Virus record (IMG/VR): IMGVR_UViG_3300046804_000544
Span: 32,001-96,000 of that record
Strand: one strand, 5' to 3'
From: a virus
Length of the DNA: 64,000 nucleotides
Shown here: positions 29,739 through 36,582 of the stretch, one piece after another
How the letters are laid out: each line of letters begins with the position of its first letter
Position numbering within the stretch: position 1 is the first letter of the stretch
Notes under the pieces: model-generated
What the model was told of the DNA's origin: nothing
What the model saw: the letters and a program-made list of their open reading frames with translations, nothing else
Databases searched by the model: none
Made by a program: the position numbers and the translations under genes

Positions 29739-29746
29739 TATTTATA
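29739..29746 (-). promoter_or_regulatory. Perfect T4 late promoter TATAAATA overlapping the portal stop codon
   Basis: Exact consensus match. Confidence 0.75.
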
Positions 29747-31472
29747 CTGCGGTCGGTGTTGTTGCTGGTGCAGCCTGCGCTCCAGGAGCAGCGCCAGGTA
29801 CAGGTGCTGCACCAGGTTGGCCAGCAACTTCTGGCGGTGCTTCTTCGTCAGCAAGGTCACCTAAATCACTTTCAATACCAGCTTGACTAATACCAGCGCC
29901 GCGCATTTCTCCACTACTGTCTGTAGGTATAGCTTCAGCTTTGCCGTTTTCTTCTGCCCATAAGCGTTCGTTTTCTGCAATTTCTTCATCACTCAAACCT
30001 AAGTAACGTTTAAGAGCAAAACGTTTTGATACATAAGGTTGCTGTACAATTTGAGCAAATGTATTAATACGTTGACCATCAACTTCACTTTGACGATAAG
30101 CAGCAAAGTTTAACGGAGGCTGTAACTGTACTTCAAATAAACTACTATCAATGTTGATACCTCTATCATAAAGATAAAGTTTAAATTCTTGATCAAAAGT
30201 TTCTTGTAATAGACTTTGTAGTCGTTCGCAATACTTGTTAAAACGCAATTCTTGAATATATGCTGTGCCAACTCGCCCGTCGTTATACTGCGCTTGACTG
30301 TCATCTGCACCAGTTGGCAGATAGCTACTTGGAATTCTCAAACCACGGAATAGTTTGTTAGTAAAGTACTTTAAATCGTCAATCTCACCAAGATTCGTTC
30401 CTCCTGGTAAAGTTTCAACTTTGGATCCACGTCCTTCAGCAGTTTGTGGGAAGAAGTAATCTTCGTTGATAGATAGCGGGTTGTATGCTGAATCAATAAC
30501 GTTAGTGCCACCGCCAGTAGCACTTGGTATTCTTCTTTGATGAATTTCATTTTTAACCCTTTCAACAAAGCTCATAGCTAGGTGACTTGGCATATTACCT
30601 ACGTCAACATAGAACACACGTCGTTCTGGAGCACGTTGTACACGATAGATAATAATAGCATCTTCTAACAATTCTTTCTGCTTATAAACTTTAAAAACTT
30701 GCTCTAATAAGCTGTTACCAAAAGGATAATTGTTGTCTAAACCTTCACTTAGACTTAGATGAATCATGTGTTTTGCTTCAATAGAAACTTCATTTTGATT
30801 ATTGCTAAAACGTGTTCCTGGACTGACTGGATATGCACTAGCTTGTCCTCTTGCTGCGGCACCTCCTGCAATATAAGCAGTGCCGCGATTGTTAGTGTTT
30901 ATAGTGTTAGGATTAATTGTTGTAACAACTAAATCTTGAAAGTTTGGATTCAAATCTCTAATTACATACTGTTCAGGAAGTTTGCCTTCACTTTCATTTA
31001 CAATAATTTTAGTAATCTTGCCTGGATCAATGTAAAACCATTTTTTAGTTTCAGGATCACGAATAAAAAATGCATCGCCATACTTAAAAGCGTTGCGTAC
31101 AATTCTAAAAATACGTGTACCAAACTTTTGCATTTTGCACCATTGTTGCAGGTACTCACGTAGAATAGCAATTTCACTGTTAGTGGCCTTACTTCTAAAT
31201 TTTAAATGGAATGGTGTGTTGTTTTCTTCGTTTGGTTGACTGCAAAATTCTGCTAGGATATCTAGTGCAGCATTAACTTCACTGTCGTTATCCATAGTAT
31301 CATACTGCAAATAACGTTCGATACGATTAGGTGCACCTGTATAAACATCGGGCAAATAGCTAGAGTAGTTGGCTCGGGCTGGCCCAGGTCGTGATGACCC
31401 GTTACCTACAGGACTATATGTCCCTGGTTGTGTACCTGTTGAAACAGGATTGAAATATTTTTTCCAGCTCAT
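29742..31472 (-). CDS. gp20: Portal protein, T4 gp20-like
   Basis: LLEDAIIIYRVQRAPERRVFYVDVGNMP, EDYFFPQTAEGRGSKVETLPGGTNLGEIDDLKYF and ELRFNKYCERLQ motifs. Confidence 0.95.
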   Translation of the reverse strand: MSWKKYFNPVSTGTQPGTYSPVGNGSSRPGPARANYSSYLPDVYTGAPNRIERYLQYDTMDNDSEVNAALDILAEFCSQPNEENNTPFHLKFRSKATNSEIAILREYLQQWCKMQKFGTRIFRIVRNAFKYGDAFFIRDPETKKWFYIDPGKITKIIVNESEGKLPEQYVIRDLNPNFQDLVVTTINPNTINTNNRGTAYIAGGAAARGQASAYPVSPGTRFSNNQNEVSIEAKHMIHLSLSEGLDNNYPFGNSLLEQVFKVYKQKELLEDAIIIYRVQRAPERRVFYVDVGNMPSHLAMSFVERVKNEIHQRRIPSATGGGTNVIDSAYNPLSINEDYFFPQTAEGRGSKVETLPGGTNLGEIDDLKYFTNKLFRGLRIPSSYLPTGADDSQAQYNDGRVGTAYIQELRFNKYCERLQSLLQETFDQEFKLYLYDRGINIDSSLFEVQLQPPLNFAAYRQSEVDGQRINTFAQIVQQPYVSKRFALKRYLGLSDEEIAENERLWAEENGKAEAIPTDSSGEMRGAGISQAGIESDLGDLADEEAPPEVAGQPGAAPVPGAAPGAQAAPATTPTAV

Positions 31473-34351
31473 TAACTTGCCTTATATAAATTTGAACTAT
31501 TGCTCTTAGTTGCACTAATTTGTTTATTGAATAAATCTTCAGTTTTGGTAATTAGCTGACCCATCTTAGTATTTAATTGATTTAAACTGGTTACTACGTC
31601 AGATAAGGTAGCTTCTTTAGCGCCGGCGGCGCTTGGCTTGCTATCAGACTTCTTATCGTCTCCTGTCTTTTTAGCAGCATCTCCTTTTTTTGCAGCAGCT
31701 TCATCAACTGGTGTATATTCTTCCCCAGTCTCTGGATTGATTTTTTTACCAGGGCTTGGTGTTTTTTCAGGAATAGTAGCAGCAGCAGCCTTAGTTTGTT
31801 TCATTATAGGCATGCCATTTGGTCCAAGAGAGAAACTATCTAAATTTAGTTTTCCTTCATTGAACACTGGACTAGTACCTGCTGCAAGATCTGCCATTGC
31901 TTGTGCTTTTTTACTCAATTTTCCTGCAGGCTCAGCTGATGCACGTTTCATTGCACCTTCTAAATCACCAAACTCAGTGTCAACATATTGTTGTTCAGGA
32001 GCCTGACGCTTCATTGCACCTTCTAAATCACCAAACTCAGTGTCTGGATACATTTGTTCAGCAGCACGCTTCATTGCCCCTTCTAAATCACCAAACTCAT
32101 CAATTGGCAGTGCATTAGATATATCGGTGCTGATTGATTCTATAGAACTTTCCCAATTATCACCAAAGTCATCAAATCCTTCAACTAAATCTCCTATTGA
32201 CTCTTCAACAACTTTGTTTAATCTATCATACGCTTCTTTATATTTTTCATAAGCAGAATTTAATTCTTCATCAGATGCATTGTCATCATTTAATAATCTA
32301 GTAACATCTTCTTTAGCTTTATCATGCGCTTCTCTAGCTTCATCTATACGCATTTGAGCTAGTTCTTTAGTAAGATTTAAAGGAAACGCATCTGAAATAT
32401 CATTACTAATTTCGTCTAACGATTTGCCCCAACTATCGTTAAAAATATCAAAACTGTCTGAAACATCTGTTGATGTTTCAGTAATTAATCCTGTAAATTC
32501 AGAACTAAAATCTGCAAAAGATTTTTCAAAAGGTCTTGTTAATTCAGCTAGATCAGGACCTTTAATTGTAGTAGAACCCCCACCGCTGGTCTTAGTTGCA
32601 GAACTAAAAGTAGTTGAGATATCTTTAGCAATAGATGAAATATCAACTCCACCTGCAGGTGTTTGTTCAGCTAGTCCTGCCATTGTACCATCTACTGTGT
32701 GTTTTAATAGCTGGTTAAGATCTTCGGGACGCATAATACTTTCTAAACCATGCAACTCTACTAAAGTACCGTCACCCCAATTTTCAAATAATTGTCCGGC
32801 CATTCCTAAAGAACCGCCTTGGCGTTTTGGTGTTGGTAATACTTTTTGTGCTACATCTCCAGCTTTACCAGCAATTGTACCAACATCTCTAGCTACATTT
32901 AATGCAGTACCTTCTATACCGCTGCCTCCTCTAGCATCGCCGGATCGTCGATCTCCTGTTGGTTTATTGCTTGAAGCAGCTCCTTCTTTAACCGCACCTT
33001 CGAGGGCTGGAGCCATTCTTTGATTTGAACCTCCAAATTTTTCTCCGCTAAGGTAACGATCAGCAAATGCACCTAACCCAGGGCCTACTTTTTCATTTAA
33101 TGGAGTTAATAATCCATTCATTAGTGCTGCTCGCGTGTCGTCTACTCTGTTCCCAAAAGCTATCATTGATTTTGTTGCACCGTCTACACTTTTTCCTTCA
33201 GCATCTTTACCTGCTTGAGAATCTTTTACACGTTTCCTAGCTTCAGCTTCGATCTCAGCAGTAGTCATGCGTTGGGCGCCTTTTTCTTTGACGTCTTTTT
33301 CGTTTTCTCTACGAACAGCATCCATAGCATCATACAGACCTCTAGTGGATTTCATTCCGTCCATTATGGTCTTTGATGCAGCATTGTTGTCACCAACTGT
33401 GGCTAAATTTAATTTTGCAACATTTCTTCCATCTTCATATGCAGCTTCTCTACCTCTCTTAGCAGCATCAGCAGCTTCTTGTTCTTGTCCTTTTTGTGTG
33501 GCCAATGCCATGTCTCTTGTAGCTTTGGCCTGTTCTTGATTAATAGCTGCTTGTGTTGCAGCATCTTTACTCATTATTTGTCCTGTAGCAAATATCTCTT
33601 TAAACATTTGCCCTTGACCGCGAGCTTGAGCTTCATTAAACTGTTGAGCATACATTGCTCTAGCTTTTGCTTCAGCTTCAGGACCTTCTTTAATGCCGAT
33701 CAATCGCATCTTAGCTTCAACTTGCATGTCCATCTGAGCTTTTTTCATGTTTTCCATTTGCTCTTCACGGCTCTTGCCAGTCAGCTTGGCCATTAGGTCC
33801 ATTTCAGTTGCTAGCTTTGCAGCAGATTCATACGCTTCTTGATCTCTCTGTTTACCGTCCTTCATTGAAGAACGCATAAATCCCATTTGAGTTGCTAGTA
33901 CTTCATTGAGGTCTTTGTTGGTGTAGCCCATTTGTTTAAGGCTTTCAGCTGCACCACTATCGTACATTTGTTTGCTAACTTCAGCAAAACGTTTAGCACC
34001 ATCAACAGCATTACCACCAAATCCTACAAAATCAGCAGCATTCTTTTTAACTACTTCTGCAAATTCTTGTAATGGTAATCTAGTTCCGGCTGCGGCAACC
34101 GTCATTCCAATAACATCGTTATTGAAACTAGCTCCCGACTTGCTTAAATCACGCCAGGTATTAAGACCTTTTTCTAATCCTTCTGCTAGAGATTTTGCAC
34201 CATCACCTGCATTTTTTAATGCATTAGTAAATGGGTTCATTGCGGCAGTAGCGTCGCCAACTTTTTTGTCAACGGCACTGATACCAGTGCCTTTTGATAC
34301 TGATTTGTTTAACTGTTTCAGTTGTTCTACAATTTCGTCATTAGTTGCCAT
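31472..34351 (-). CDS. Tape-measure-like protein (~959 aa)
   Basis: Long A/K/E/Q-rich helical protein next to the tail-chaperone-like gene. It carries the TP-x-R-x-GGSLG...ENWG.GT...LHG.E motif typical of tape-measure C-terminal regions. Start moved to the ATG at 34351 (MATNDEIVEQL). Confidence 0.65.
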   Translation of the reverse strand: MATNDEIVEQLKQLNKSVSKGTGISAVDKKVGDATAAMNPFTNALKNAGDGAKSLAEGLEKGLNTWRDLSKSGASFNNDVIGMTVAAAGTRLPLQEFAEVVKKNAADFVGFGGNAVDGAKRFAEVSKQMYDSGAAESLKQMGYTNKDLNEVLATQMGFMRSSMKDGKQRDQEAYESAAKLATEMDLMAKLTGKSREEQMENMKKAQMDMQVEAKMRLIGIKEGPEAEAKARAMYAQQFNEAQARGQGQMFKEIFATGQIMSKDAATQAAINQEQAKATRDMALATQKGQEQEAADAAKRGREAAYEDGRNVAKLNLATVGDNNAASKTIMDGMKSTRGLYDAMDAVRRENEKDVKEKGAQRMTTAEIEAEARKRVKDSQAGKDAEGKSVDGATKSMIAFGNRVDDTRAALMNGLLTPLNEKVGPGLGAFADRYLSGEKFGGSNQRMAPALEGAVKEGAASSNKPTGDRRSGDARGGSGIEGTALNVARDVGTIAGKAGDVAQKVLPTPKRQGGSLGMAGQLFENWGDGTLVELHGLESIMRPEDLNQLLKHTVDGTMAGLAEQTPAGGVDISSIAKDISTTFSSATKTSGGGSTTIKGPDLAELTRPFEKSFADFSSEFTGLITETSTDVSDSFDIFNDSWGKSLDEISNDISDAFPLNLTKELAQMRIDEAREAHDKAKEDVTRLLNDDNASDEELNSAYEKYKEAYDRLNKVVEESIGDLVEGFDDFGDNWESSIESISTDISNALPIDEFGDLEGAMKRAAEQMYPDTEFGDLEGAMKRQAPEQQYVDTEFGDLEGAMKRASAEPAGKLSKKAQAMADLAAGTSPVFNEGKLNLDSFSLGPNGMPIMKQTKAAAATIPEKTPSPGKKINPETGEEYTPVDEAAAKKGDAAKKTGDDKKSDSKPSAAGAKEATLSDVVTSLNQLNTKMGQLITKTEDLFNKQISATKSNSSNLYKAS
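31944..32100 (-). repeat. Three near-identical tandem copies encoding EFGDLEGAMKR (60/63-nt spacing)
   Basis: A ~33-nt core, cg(t/c)ttcattgc(a/c)ccttctaaatcaccaaactca, occurs at about 31944, 32007 and 32067. Confidence 0.9.
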
Positions 34352-34370
34352 TAAATTTTCCAGCAAAATC

Positions 34371-34400
34371 TGCGTATATAAATACGCATAGTATATTTAT
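34371..34400. promoter_or_regulatory. Overlapping divergent late promoters with an inverted repeat
   Basis: Plus-strand TATAAATA at 34377-34384 and minus-strand ATAAATA at 34394-34400. The inverted repeat TGCGTAT-ATAA-ATACGCA spans 34371-34388. Confidence 0.7.
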
Positions 34401-34411
34401 CGGATATAAAA

Positions 34412-35236
34412 ATGAGCCAACCAAACCCATTACAGCGTTATTTTAGACAACCAAAGTTGTATGTTACTTTGCCTAGCAAAGGTTTGTTCTACGAACCTGG
34501 CGCATTTCAAGGTGATTATAATCAAGTTCCTGTGTTTGCCATGACTGGTATGGACGAGTTGATTATGAAAACTCCAGATGCATTGTATAGCGGCGAAGCT
34601 ACAGCTAAAGTTATAGAAAGTTGCTGTCCTTACATTAAAAATGCTGGATTGATGCCTAGCATTGATATTGATGCGTTAATGGTAGCTATAAGAATTGCAA
34701 CATTTGGAGAAACTATGGACATTTCTCATACTTGCAAAAATTGCGGCACAGAAAATAGTTATGACATTAACCTAACAAATTTTATGGAATATTTCAATAA
34801 CCTTAAATTTGTTAATTCAATAGATGCAGGAAATGGTATGTCAATTAAAATTCGACCTTTACAATATAATGAAATGAGTTATTTCAGTATAGAAAATTAT
34901 AAACTGCAAAAAACTCTATTTCAAATAAATGAATTAAAGGATGAAGAAAAACAAACACAAATAGATGCTATCTATAAAAATCTAAGTGAGTTACAACTTC
35001 AATTATTTTTAACTGTAATTGAATCTGTATCTACTCCAGACGGTACTGTAACAGAAAAAGCTCACATAGAAGATTGGTTAAGAAATACAGAAAGAACGCA
35101 CTATGCTCTAATTAAAGAAAAATTAGAGTCTAATAAAGAAACTTGGTCTGTGCCTTCTCAACCAATTGTTTGTTCTAATTGCCAGCACAAAGATGAATTA
35201 AGTGTAACATTGGACCAATCAAATTTTTTCGGTTAA
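34412..35236 (+). CDS. Baseplate hub/tail assembly chaperone, T4 gp26-like (274 aa)
   Basis: R.PKLYVTLPSKG, V.AMTGMDELIMK, DIDALMVAIRIATFGE, CxxC (CKNC) and a C-terminal CSNC...LDQSNFF. Confidence 0.75.
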   Translation: MSQPNPLQRYFRQPKLYVTLPSKGLFYEPGAFQGDYNQVPVFAMTGMDELIMKTPDALYSGEATAKVIESCCPYIKNAGLMPSIDIDALMVAIRIATFGETMDISHTCKNCGTENSYDINLTNFMEYFNNLKFVNSIDAGNGMSIKIRPLQYNEMSYFSIENYKLQKTLFQINELKDEEKQTQIDAIYKNLSELQLQLFLTVIESVSTPDGTVTEKAHIEDWLRNTERTHYALIKEKLESNKETWSVPSQPIVCSNCQHKDELSVTLDQSNFFG

Positions 35237-35463
35237 AGCTGTTAAGACTGTCGAACTCTCAAATTGAAGAATTTATTAAATCTATAGATCATTCCGCAAA
35301 AGAATTAAAAGAAGAAATTTTTAGATTAGCATGGTATATGAGAGGTGGTGTTAACAGCGATGACTTATTTCACAAATATTCTTATGAAGATAGAGTTATT
35401 ATAAACGAAATTGTCAAAGACAATATTGAAATAACTAAAAAAACTGGAATGAATTTAATTTAA
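35224..35463 (+). CDS. Start-less gp51-like ORF, probably reached by a -1 frameshift from the gp26-like gene
   Basis: Not in the ORF track. The frame is open from 35197 to TAA at 35461-35463: FFRLKLLRLSNSQIEEFIKSIDHSAKELKEEIFRLAWYMRGGVNSDDLFHKYSYEDRVIINEIVKDNIEITKKTGMNLI. There is no ATG before the internal M of WYMRGG. Confidence 0.7.
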   Translation, partial: FFRLKLLRLSNSQIEEFIKSIDHSAKELKEEIFRLAWYMRGGVNSDDLFHKYSYEDRVIINEIVKDNIEITKKTGMNLI

Positions 35464-36582
35464 CGGTGGCCAGTCTTGGCCAGGTTTAAGTTTAACACCT
35501 GAGCTAATAAGTGGATCAGGTTGACCTTTTCTAATAGCTGTTTGTCGAATATTTTTTATGTAATGGTTGTATTTGACACTTGGCAGTAAAAATCCTTCAG
35601 CATCACTTACTGGAATATCTTGAACATAAATTCCAGCACCGCCTTCTTTACGTTCTTTTTCAGCTGCTGCTTGTGCTTCGGGCCCGCCAACTTTTTGTGT
35701 TTCTACGTCTTTCTTAGAACCAGGTAATATGCCTAAATCTTTAGGTTCTTTGCCAGTTATCTTTTTGTAACCATCTTGATAAGCTTCAATCACTTCATCC
35801 CATAGTGTATCGCCTACCATACCCAATGTAGAAATCATACCTCCAGCATATTTGTAAGCCCAGTTTCTACCTGCATCGCTACCTATCCATGTTTGAAACC
35901 AAACTAAAAACCCGTGCCATGCAATGACTCCAGCACCACCTAAACGAATAGCCAGCTTAGGAGCGAATCCTGCAATAAATCTAATAACAATATTTTTTGA
36001 TTTAGATGCTAATTTACTTGTAACCTTGGCAACAATTTTGGTAAGACCCAGAGCCGCCGCAGTTACTTTAGTTAAATTTAACAACCATGAAATAAATGCT
36101 GTTACTAATTTAGGTAGAATTTGAAGTGTAAAGAAACCCCACTCAAATTCTCGCATTTCTTTGTATTTTTCGTAGGCATTTGGTTTAGCACCGTCGTATT
36201 TGCCCTGTAGATAAAATGCTTCATTTACCATGAGATTAGCATAAAGCTGTTGTACTGGTACAAAGAATCCAGCAGCTTTTAAGAATGCTACCCATTTTGT
36301 AGGATATTTTTCGCCTAGTATGGCTCCTGCTCTATCATATAATTTGAGATTTTTAGCATAAGAAGTAAATGTTTTACTCAATGCTTCCGTAGACAATTTA
36401 GTAATTGCTACAGCAGTCACAGTGCCAATAGCTACAGTTTTTAAAGTTTGATAATCAGCTTTATCTAGAATTTCTGATAAAACTGGAGCATTACTTGCTA
36501 AGTCAGAACTACTATCTGAAGGAGTTTCATTTCCTAATCCAGGACTTTCGTAATCTTCTTTAACGATCTCAAATATTTTCAT
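35455..36582 (-). CDS. Hypothetical protein with several hydrophobic helices; possible internal head/ejection protein (375 aa)
   Basis: N-terminus MKIFEIVKE. Hydrophobic segments include FFTLQILPKLVTAFISWLL and LGGAGVIAWHGFLVWF. A late promoter lies upstream. Confidence 0.6.
   Translation of the reverse strand: MKIFEIVKEDYESPGLGNETPSDSSSDLASNAPVLSEILDKADYQTLKTVAIGTVTAVAITKLSTEALSKTFTSYAKNLKLYDRAGAILGEKYPTKWVAFLKAAGFFVPVQQLYANLMVNEAFYLQGKYDGAKPNAYEKYKEMREFEWGFFTLQILPKLVTAFISWLLNLTKVTAAALGLTKIVAKVTSKLASKSKNIVIRFIAGFAPKLAIRLGGAGVIAWHGFLVWFQTWIGSDAGRNWAYKYAGGMISTLGMVGDTLWDEVIEAYQDGYKKITGKEPKDLGILPGSKKDVETQKVGGPEAQAAAEKERKEGGAGIYVQDIPVSDAEGFLLPSVKYNHYIKNIRQTAIRKGQPDPLISSGVKLKPGQDWPPLN

Follow-up and report, generated by a model that had tools for sequence, protein, structure and literature searches.

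Phage T4 encodes gp26 and gp51 in two separate genes, and the question raised by the locus studied here is how a phage with a single gene of this family might obtain two products from it. The locus lies in a 64,000-nucleotide stretch of DNA (positions 32001-96000 of the 132,916-base uncultured virus record IMGVR_UViG_3300046804_000544 of IMG/VR), the whole of which we refer to as the window; the record is estimated to be 38% complete, and the genome is therefore probably ~350 kb in size. The gene in question, hereafter the hub gene, carries a slippery heptamer at its 3' end. An earlier reading of the letters and their open reading frames (ORFs), made without database searches and referred to below as the sequence-only reading, had proposed that a programmed -1 frameshift at this point joins the gene to the frame that follows it. 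From comparison with its relatives, we consider it very likely (with a probability of about 0.9) that programmed -1 ribosomal frameshifting yields two proteins from the phage's single gp26/gp51-family gene.

In the mechanism that we propose, most ribosomes would translate AAT TTT TTC GGT and terminate at the TAA that follows, which yields the short form of 274 aa. A fraction would slip back by one base while two tRNA-Phe occupy U UUU UUC, both of which could re-pair with UUU, and these ribosomes would read on through CGG UUA AAG..., adding a 77-aa helical domain to give a 350-aa long form.

The slippery site at the end of the hub gene

The hub gene product was assigned to the T4_baseplate family PF12322 (E 1.8e-20, 74 bits against a curated cut-off of 24.5, profile positions 38-218 of 219) and also matched phrog_150, 'baseplate hub' (E 5.8e-22). 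Its AlphaFold2 (AF2) model had a predicted local distance difference test score (pLDDT) of 88.7, and two CxxC pairs (C108, C111, C254 and C257) are invariant across homologue alignments together with F272 and F273. In the 0 frame the gene ends TCA(35219) AAT TTT TTC GGT TAA(35234-35236), and the heptamer at 35224-35230, its phase, the TGA at 35194 and the -1 frame open to 35463 were all confirmed from the sequence as the sequence-only reading had described them (Table 1). The G at 35231, directly after the heptamer, makes CGG (Arg) the first -1 codon. The predicted trans-frame product has 273+77 = 350 aa with the junction ...SNFF-RLK..., in agreement with the fusion of ~350 aa suggested earlier; the predicted tryptic peptides are DELSVTLDQSNFFR for the trans-frame product, spanning the heptamer, and DELSVTLDQSNFFG for the 0-frame C-terminus. 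Only 1 of the 29 window ORFs of at least 100 aa has an in-phase heptamer in its last 10 codons together with a long open -1 frame, and this frame runs for 77 codons at the hub gene compared with 0-1 codons at the window's two other heptamers; the combination of heptamer and open -1 frame exceeds chance. A second, overlapping heptamer, A AAT TTT at 35221-35227, would result in the same peptide and is not conserved.

The nearest cultured relatives retrieved by tblastn, at ~31% identity, were the Rak2-like jumbo phages 121Q, PBECO4, PA5oct, Atu_ph07 and Phosso. The source phage is a relative of this group, whose members carry T4-type core genes, and not a close relative of T4, which corrects its earlier description as a T4-like phage.

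To follow the slippery site through the family we used 123 distinct junctions of the two-ORF type, drawn from two IMG/VR surveys (73 and 63 junctions) and the isolates 121Q, PA5oct, Atu_ph07 and Phosso, which are included in the first survey. TTTTTTC was found in phase in 123 of 123 junctions, across loci whose N-terminal protein identity to that of the window ranged from 27 to 70%; the in-phase heptamer on which the sequence-only reading was built is hence a conserved feature of homologous loci. The codon preceding the heptamer's two Phe codons also ended in T in every junction (AAT 71, AGT 23, GAT 20, CAT 4, GGT 2, ACT 2 and TCT 1, representing six amino acids), compared with 65% of comparable two-fold codons among the 19 codons upstream. 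The first Phe codon was always TTT and the second always TTC. Since the next base is G in all junctions except that of PA5oct, making the first -1 codon CGN (Arg), the C of the heptamer is constrained by both frames, as expected if -1 reading begins at exactly this point. The 0-frame stop lies 1-4 codons past the heptamer in the relatives. In the four isolate genomes, xxT TTT TTC stands 1-3 codons before the hub-gene stop and the -1 frame is open for 70-76 codons. Phe-Phe alone does not explain this conservation of nucleotides, because T4 gp26, which ends in ..EFFELL, keeps the pair with the codons TTC TTT; the T4 gene has no heptamer and is followed by gene 25.

The mRNA downstream of the heptamer also bears on the proposed slip. 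In 40 of the 73 loci of the first survey, an 11-12 bp stem with a loop of ~30 nt starts 5-6 nt after the heptamer. Pairing in these loci was 93% in register, compared with 19-52% when the partner was slid, and compensatory changes were seen at several stem positions (for example, pair 12-47: TA 14, CG 14, TG 12). Eight further loci have a different type of stem, likewise with compensatory changes, bringing the loci with stems at 5-6 nt to 48 of 73; pairs were counted per group because the stems are lineage-specific. The stems of Atu_ph07 and Phosso are strong (z -6.5 and -4.1, respectively). Judged from these comparisons, an mRNA stem beginning 5-6 nt past the heptamer probably stimulates the slip in most relatives.

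In the closest relatives of the window (L008 and L009, 2319-2450 in each), a 14-bp stem begins 6 nt after the heptamer and pairs with the RGGV codons ~105 nt downstream, which was equalled in 0 of 200 shuffles. The stimulatory stem here takes a long-range form; in other lineages its partner is proximal, ~30 nt away. The 8-bp helix that could form in the window between GCUGUUAA and UUAACAGC has its 5' arm in the position seen in the relatives' stems and its partner in the codon region used in L008 and L009, and the window's best long-range helix was equalled by 18 of 200 shuffles. The candidate stimulators in the window are this weak long-range stem and the nearby stop codon only. The lambda G-T shift is said not to need strong structure. 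As for a Shine-Dalgarno-like stimulator upstream, there is only a weak GGA ~14 nt upstream, inside the conserved LDQ codons, for which we make no claim.

The extension, its natural fusions and the T4 pair gp26 and gp51

The earliest ATG, GTG or TTG in the -1 frame of the window is the ATG at 35338, which encodes the M of WYMRGG, and the earlier statement that no ATG precedes this core can be extended to all three start codons. Between the preceding stop and 30 nt past the shift point, 44 of 73 first-survey and 35 of 63 second-survey junctions were equally devoid of ATG, GTG and TTG, so that the downstream frame is start-less in homologues too; where starts exist, their positions are scattered, from -87 to -51 upstream and at +3, +6, +9, +12, +18 and +24 downstream. 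The ATG of the Phosso and Atu_ph07 -1 frames aligns with TTA (Leu) in the window. Conservation of the extension begins at its first residue, an R that is invariant in 69 extensions from IMG/VR and the window (PA5oct has Q), and AF2 modelled the extension as a helical domain with a pLDDT of 92, a value shared by its first 10 residues. By sequence and comparison, the -1 frame of the window is open and coding from the shift point onwards, without an initiation signal of its own.

Records of the isolates treat this stretch in different ways. The extension is annotated as a separate small hypothetical gene in 121Q (gp595, L003:3828-4037) and Phosso (gene 319, L004:3825-4055) and is shortened to 40 aa in Atu_ph07 (gp687, L001:3109-3231); the PA5oct record holds no annotation of it, and none of the four records marks a frameshift.

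If the two frames are joined by recoding, natural proteins in which they form a single ORF would be an informative comparison. A word-indexed search for longer proteins containing the extension retrieved none; such fusions were later found by an exhaustive HMMER search of 1.84 billion representatives with a profile of the extension. The majority of its 386 matches were fragments of 41-98 aa, as gene callers would produce, and ~25 of the best 150 were proteins of 319-351 aa carrying the extension at the C-terminus from profile position 1. These natural fusions (P0021, P0023, P0035 and others; loci L097-L103) share with the window the N-terminal family and the WYMRGG extension, and they are collinear with its conceptual trans-frame product without a gap across the junction, where ..VTLDQSNFF|RLKLLRLSNSQIEEF.. 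of the window aligns with ..VTLDFSEMF|RAKLIRLSDEEIISV.. of P0023. Five fused loci were recovered as DNA and have non-slippery junctions (ata ttc|cgg, caa ttt|aga, cgt ttt|cgt, act ttc|cga and caa ttt|cgc), from which it follows that the single-ORF homologues are real fusions and not homopolymer errors.

Unlike the window, the fused loci need no recoding, and a short form is available from a neighbouring paralogous gene: a PF12322 paralogue without the extension directly adjoins the fusion gene in 6 of 6 in-frame fused loci (L097-L101 and L103; L102 is like L101). In L101 this paralogue has 42% identity to the fusion gene and ends without FF or heptamer. It lies upstream of the fusion gene in five loci and downstream in L101/L102 (L097:4075-5975, L098:2358-4329, L099:4000-6005, L100:3963-5996, L103:3947-5975 and L101:4953-6893, each spanning fusion and paralogue). 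A clade of uncultured phages thus seems to have replaced the frameshift by two adjacent PF12322 genes, one an in-frame fusion and the other an extension-less paralogue. The same pattern is seen in gene copy number. One PF12322 gene with a heptamer is present in 121Q, Atu_ph07, PA5oct, Phosso, Cronobacter LPCS28, Rhizobium LG08 and the window's own record, whereas two PF12322 genes without a heptamer are present in T4, Aeromonas B614, G001 and G002. Fused loci and copy numbers follow one rule, which points to a need for two products.

In T4 itself, genes 26 and 51 are adjacent, with gene 51 divergent and gene 25 after gene 26. T4 gp51 matched PF12322 (E 3.9e-52) and phrog_150 (E 2.6e-84, profile 13-280) and gp26 covered positions 14-235 of the profile; as both belong to the same family and gp51 reaches farther, the two are paralogues, gp51 having an extra C-terminal tail. 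The likeness to the window lies in the family, in a short and a long form with a common N-terminal body, in the Cys pairs and in ..FF near the end of the short form (T4 gp26 has CPEC and ..EFFELL). The difference is that T4 has two diverged, divergently transcribed genes and no heptamer, whereas the window has one gene and, as proposed, recoding.

A more direct link to gp51 was found in LPCS28 (Straboviridae) and LG08, T4-like phages outside the jumbo clade that each have a single PF12322 gene. In both, T TTT TTC precedes the stop of gp26 by 1-2 codons and the -1 ORF is 55-59 codons long, and these extensions matched phrog_634, 'baseplate hub assembly catalyst', the gp51 family (E 3.5e-10 and 5.5e-8); that of LPCS28 aligns from its first residue with T4 gp51 residues 201-244. 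Because these -1 extensions belong to the family of the gp51 tail, a single gene with a frameshift is the counterpart of genes 26 and 51 of T4 together. In the records, the -1 ORF is unannotated in LPCS28 (L095:1466-1642), and only a 46-aa piece of it is annotated in LG08 (L094:1466-1657). A locus search starting from T4 gp26 reached close T4 relatives only.

The window's own extension is a different matter. The sequence-only reading had called the downstream ORF gp51-like, a label that the direct comparisons did not bear out: the extension had no match to phrog_634 even at E up to 10, hhalign comparisons with T4 gp51 or a small alignment of gp51 tails gave probabilities of 0.3%, 4% and 1%, and when the fusion alignment was compared with T4 gp51 by hhalign, the second Cys knuckle was the only part that matched (11%). 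At 77 aa it is also longer than the gp51 tail (~49 aa). The term can be applied to it by analogy, on grounds of architecture (the predicted 350-aa product consists of a PF12322 body and a C-terminal tail, as does T4 gp51) and of the LPCS28 and LG08 extensions that match phrog_634. Since gp51 is a full gp26 paralogue plus a tail, the equivalent of gp51 is the whole trans-frame product and that of gp26 the 0-frame product. Of the earlier equation of the separate T4 genes with the short and long forms, the two-gene equivalence therefore stands, and the notion that gp51 is a 'T-domain' gene does not.

In Table 2 of Leiman et al. (2010, PMC3004832), T4 gp26 (208 aa) and gp51 (249 aa) appear as 'hub assembly chaperones', and gp51 is described there as needed for assembly and absent from the particle, with its mechanism listed as unknown (PMC3004832). 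By extension from T4, the short and long forms would act like gp26 and gp51, as non-virion or substoichiometric chaperones for assembly of the central hub and tape measure. By analogy with lambda G/GT, the short form may be the bulk chaperone and the extension of the minor long form may add an extra binding surface.

Alternative routes to the extension

Several observations weigh against programmed frameshifting as outlined above. The trans-frame product of every family member considered here is predicted from sequence comparison, and the chaperone function is inferred from the T4 literature only. The window's extension shows no detectable similarity to the gp51 tail. RNAalifold over all 73 junctions gave no single consensus structure, and downstream folds of the window were no better than shuffles (z +2.6 for 100 nt and -0.56 for 200 nt). 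Phe-Phe is kept at the protein level even in T4, so that part of the conservation of the T run reflects protein constraint. Finally, the -1 frame of some relatives (121Q, Phosso, Atu_ph07 and others) contains an ATG that overlaps the hub-gene stop, at which a separate small gene is annotated in 121Q and Phosso, so that translational coupling could contribute in such phages.

The last of these points leads to the alternative that fares best, although we regard it as improbable, namely that the locus holds two separate genes and that the downstream frame is translated by itself, through termination-reinitiation or coupling or from an AUU or CUG start, to give a free peptide of ~75 aa. In its favour, some IMG/VR loci resemble the three isolates in having an ATG or TTG of the -1 frame on the stop or shortly past it. 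T4 gene 26 itself is reported to have an internal product begun at AUU, and a 26' coding sequence is listed in the T4 record. However, the window and more than half of the junctions have no ATG, GTG or TTG from which such a gene could start, the starts that exist are scattered, and the position of the Phosso and Atu_ph07 ATG, Leu in the window, behaves like an internal hydrophobic residue. Two separate genes would also leave unexplained why the heptamer is invariant at synonymous sites, why the match to the fusions is free of gaps and why stems are spaced 5-6 nt from the heptamer.

Slightly less probable again is transcriptional slippage, in which RNA polymerase would stutter on T6 and mRNAs with one extra U would encode the fusion. 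The homopolymeric run that this needs is present. Efficient transcriptional slippage usually needs runs longer than six, whereas 123 of 123 junctions show exactly T6 and then C, never a longer run, and the conserved stems at ribosomal spacing fit a ribosomal mechanism instead. Products of this kind are known to arise by such slippage as well, as reviewed in PMC5009743.

An assembly homopolymer error or a gene recently broken by an indel, conceivable in an uncultured IMG/VR record of low estimated completeness as homopolymers are error-prone, can practically be dismissed given that T6C recurs in 123 distinct junctions, isolate genomes among them, that the 0-frame stop is kept 1-4 codons downstream everywhere and that the T run is missing from the junction of true in-frame fusions.

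Gene surroundings and the comparison with lambda

The features of the hub gene and its neighbourhood are collected in Table 1.

Table 1. Features of the hub gene locus, in window coordinates
Feature	Position	Strand	Basis
Hub gene, 0-frame ORF of 274 aa (short product), C-terminus ..LDQSNFFG	34412..35236	+	PF12322, phrog_150
TGA stop of the -1 frame, 28 nt before the heptamer	35194..35196	+	sequence
Slippery heptamer T TTT TTC in X XXY YYZ phase	35224..35230	+	read from sequence
-1 frame extension, 77 codons and TAA (35461-35463): RLKLLRLSNSQIEEF...WYMRGG...TKKTGMNLI	35230..35463	+	sequence
0-frame stop TAA, one codon past the heptamer	35234..35236	+	sequence
5' arm GCUGUUAA of possible long-range 8-bp stem, 7 nt after the heptamer	35238..35245	+	200-nt fold, statistically weak
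3' arm UUAACAGC of possible long-range stem, within the GGVNS codons	35349..35356	+	200-nt fold
Terminator-like hairpin TGGCCAGTCTTGGCCA, then T-rich run, directly 3' of the extension's stop	35467..35482	+	sequence
Late-promoter-like box TATAAATA, 27 nt upstream of the hub-gene ATG	34377..34384	+	sequence match to T4-type consensus
Tape-measure-like virion protein of 964 aa, Ala/Gly/Lys/Glu-rich, divergent neighbour	31472..34366	-	composition, Atlas clusters
Portal gene of T4 gp20 type, beyond the 964-aa gene	29742-31472	-	PF07230, E 2e-111

The box TATAAATA is a putative promoter, which we take to be of the T4 late type from its consensus. It is enclosed by a 7-bp palindrome, TGCGTATATAAATACGCA, at 34371-34388, within the 45-nt gap between the divergent tape-measure-like and hub genes; the palindrome may serve both genes as a regulatory site or act as a bidirectional element. 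On the other side, a convergent unrelated gene follows the hub gene, and gp46/gp47-like genes lie farther along the window.

For the 964-aa neighbour, which is listed from a TTG with an ATG 5 codons in, the nearest named Atlas clusters are tape measure proteins, at a score of 0.92 that serves as a lead only. The protein contains FGDLEGAMKR three times at intervals of ~20 residues (residues 758-767, 778-787 and 799-808; window 31943-32095, - strand), a short tandem protein repeat. The order of portal, large structural protein and hub gene is common to the window, PA5oct, 121Q and Phosso, and is not visible in the stretch of Atu_ph07 examined. The PA5oct record marks the portal and the large neighbour with the virion-detection note 'ESI-MS/MS' but not the hub-gene homologue, which agrees with a non-virion chaperone.

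The sequence-only reading had likened the locus to lambda gpG/gpGT, whose frameshift precedes the tape measure gene. What holds of this parallel is the logic of the two forms, with an assembly-chaperone gene from which a -1 slip close to its 3' end gives a major short and a minor C-terminally extended product (predicted in the case of the window), and the adjacency to a tape-measure-like gene. In chaperones of the lambda type, the part common to both forms binds the tape measure protein and the extension binds the tube protein. What does not hold is the order: unlike in lambda, the gene is divergent from the tape-measure-like gene and lies neither directly upstream of it on the same strand nor between tube and tape measure genes. 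The slippery heptamers also differ, that of lambda being G GGA AAG. No relation to known tail assembly chaperones emerged from a sequence search of the PDB, which gave no match, from Foldseek searches of the PDB with both AF2 models (no meaningful match, best E 0.45) or from a VIA-align wide search with the N-terminal body, which returned a helical hairpin only (Z 8 or less).

A conserved -1 frameshift in the tail assembly chaperone genes of long-tailed phages was reportedly described by Xu, Hendrix and Duda in 2004. Conservation of the G-T frameshift in long-tailed phages has since been stated to hold 'except T4' (Atkins et al., 2016, PMC5009743). A frameshift in the gp26/gp51 family was not found in the literature covered by our search, which included jumbo-phage papers mentioning the baseplate hub and left most subscription journals outside its reach; no mention of one occurs in a large review of recoding or in the PRFect paper.

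We put forward, tentatively and at somewhat less than even odds, that the gp26/gp51 family is the T4-lineage counterpart of lambda G/GT. On this proposal T4-related phages would ancestrally have had a single frameshifting gene, and the separate genes 26 and 51 of T4 would have arisen later by a duplication that took the place of recoding; the abundant short form would coat the tape-measure/hub protein (the 964-aa protein here, gp29 in T4), and the extension of the rare long form would dock or nucleate hub and tube.

The signal described here is carried by the window locus and more than 120 relatives among T4-related phages, including the Rak2-like jumbo therapy candidates 121Q and PA5oct. Annotation could be corrected in hundreds of phage genomes, in which the -1 ORF is now a 'hypothetical protein' of 41-98 aa or is missed. 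The three natural arrangements, namely recoding, fusion plus paralogue, and two diverged genes, offer a comparison for why a fixed ratio of short to long form may be needed, and programmed frameshifting provides a hypothesis, specific enough to be tested, for what gp26 and gp51 do, which has long been unclear. If the family is indeed the counterpart of lambda G/GT, the rule would hold for all long-tailed phages, its single exception on record having fallen away, and T4 gp51, still without a known function in current listings, would gain a mechanism.

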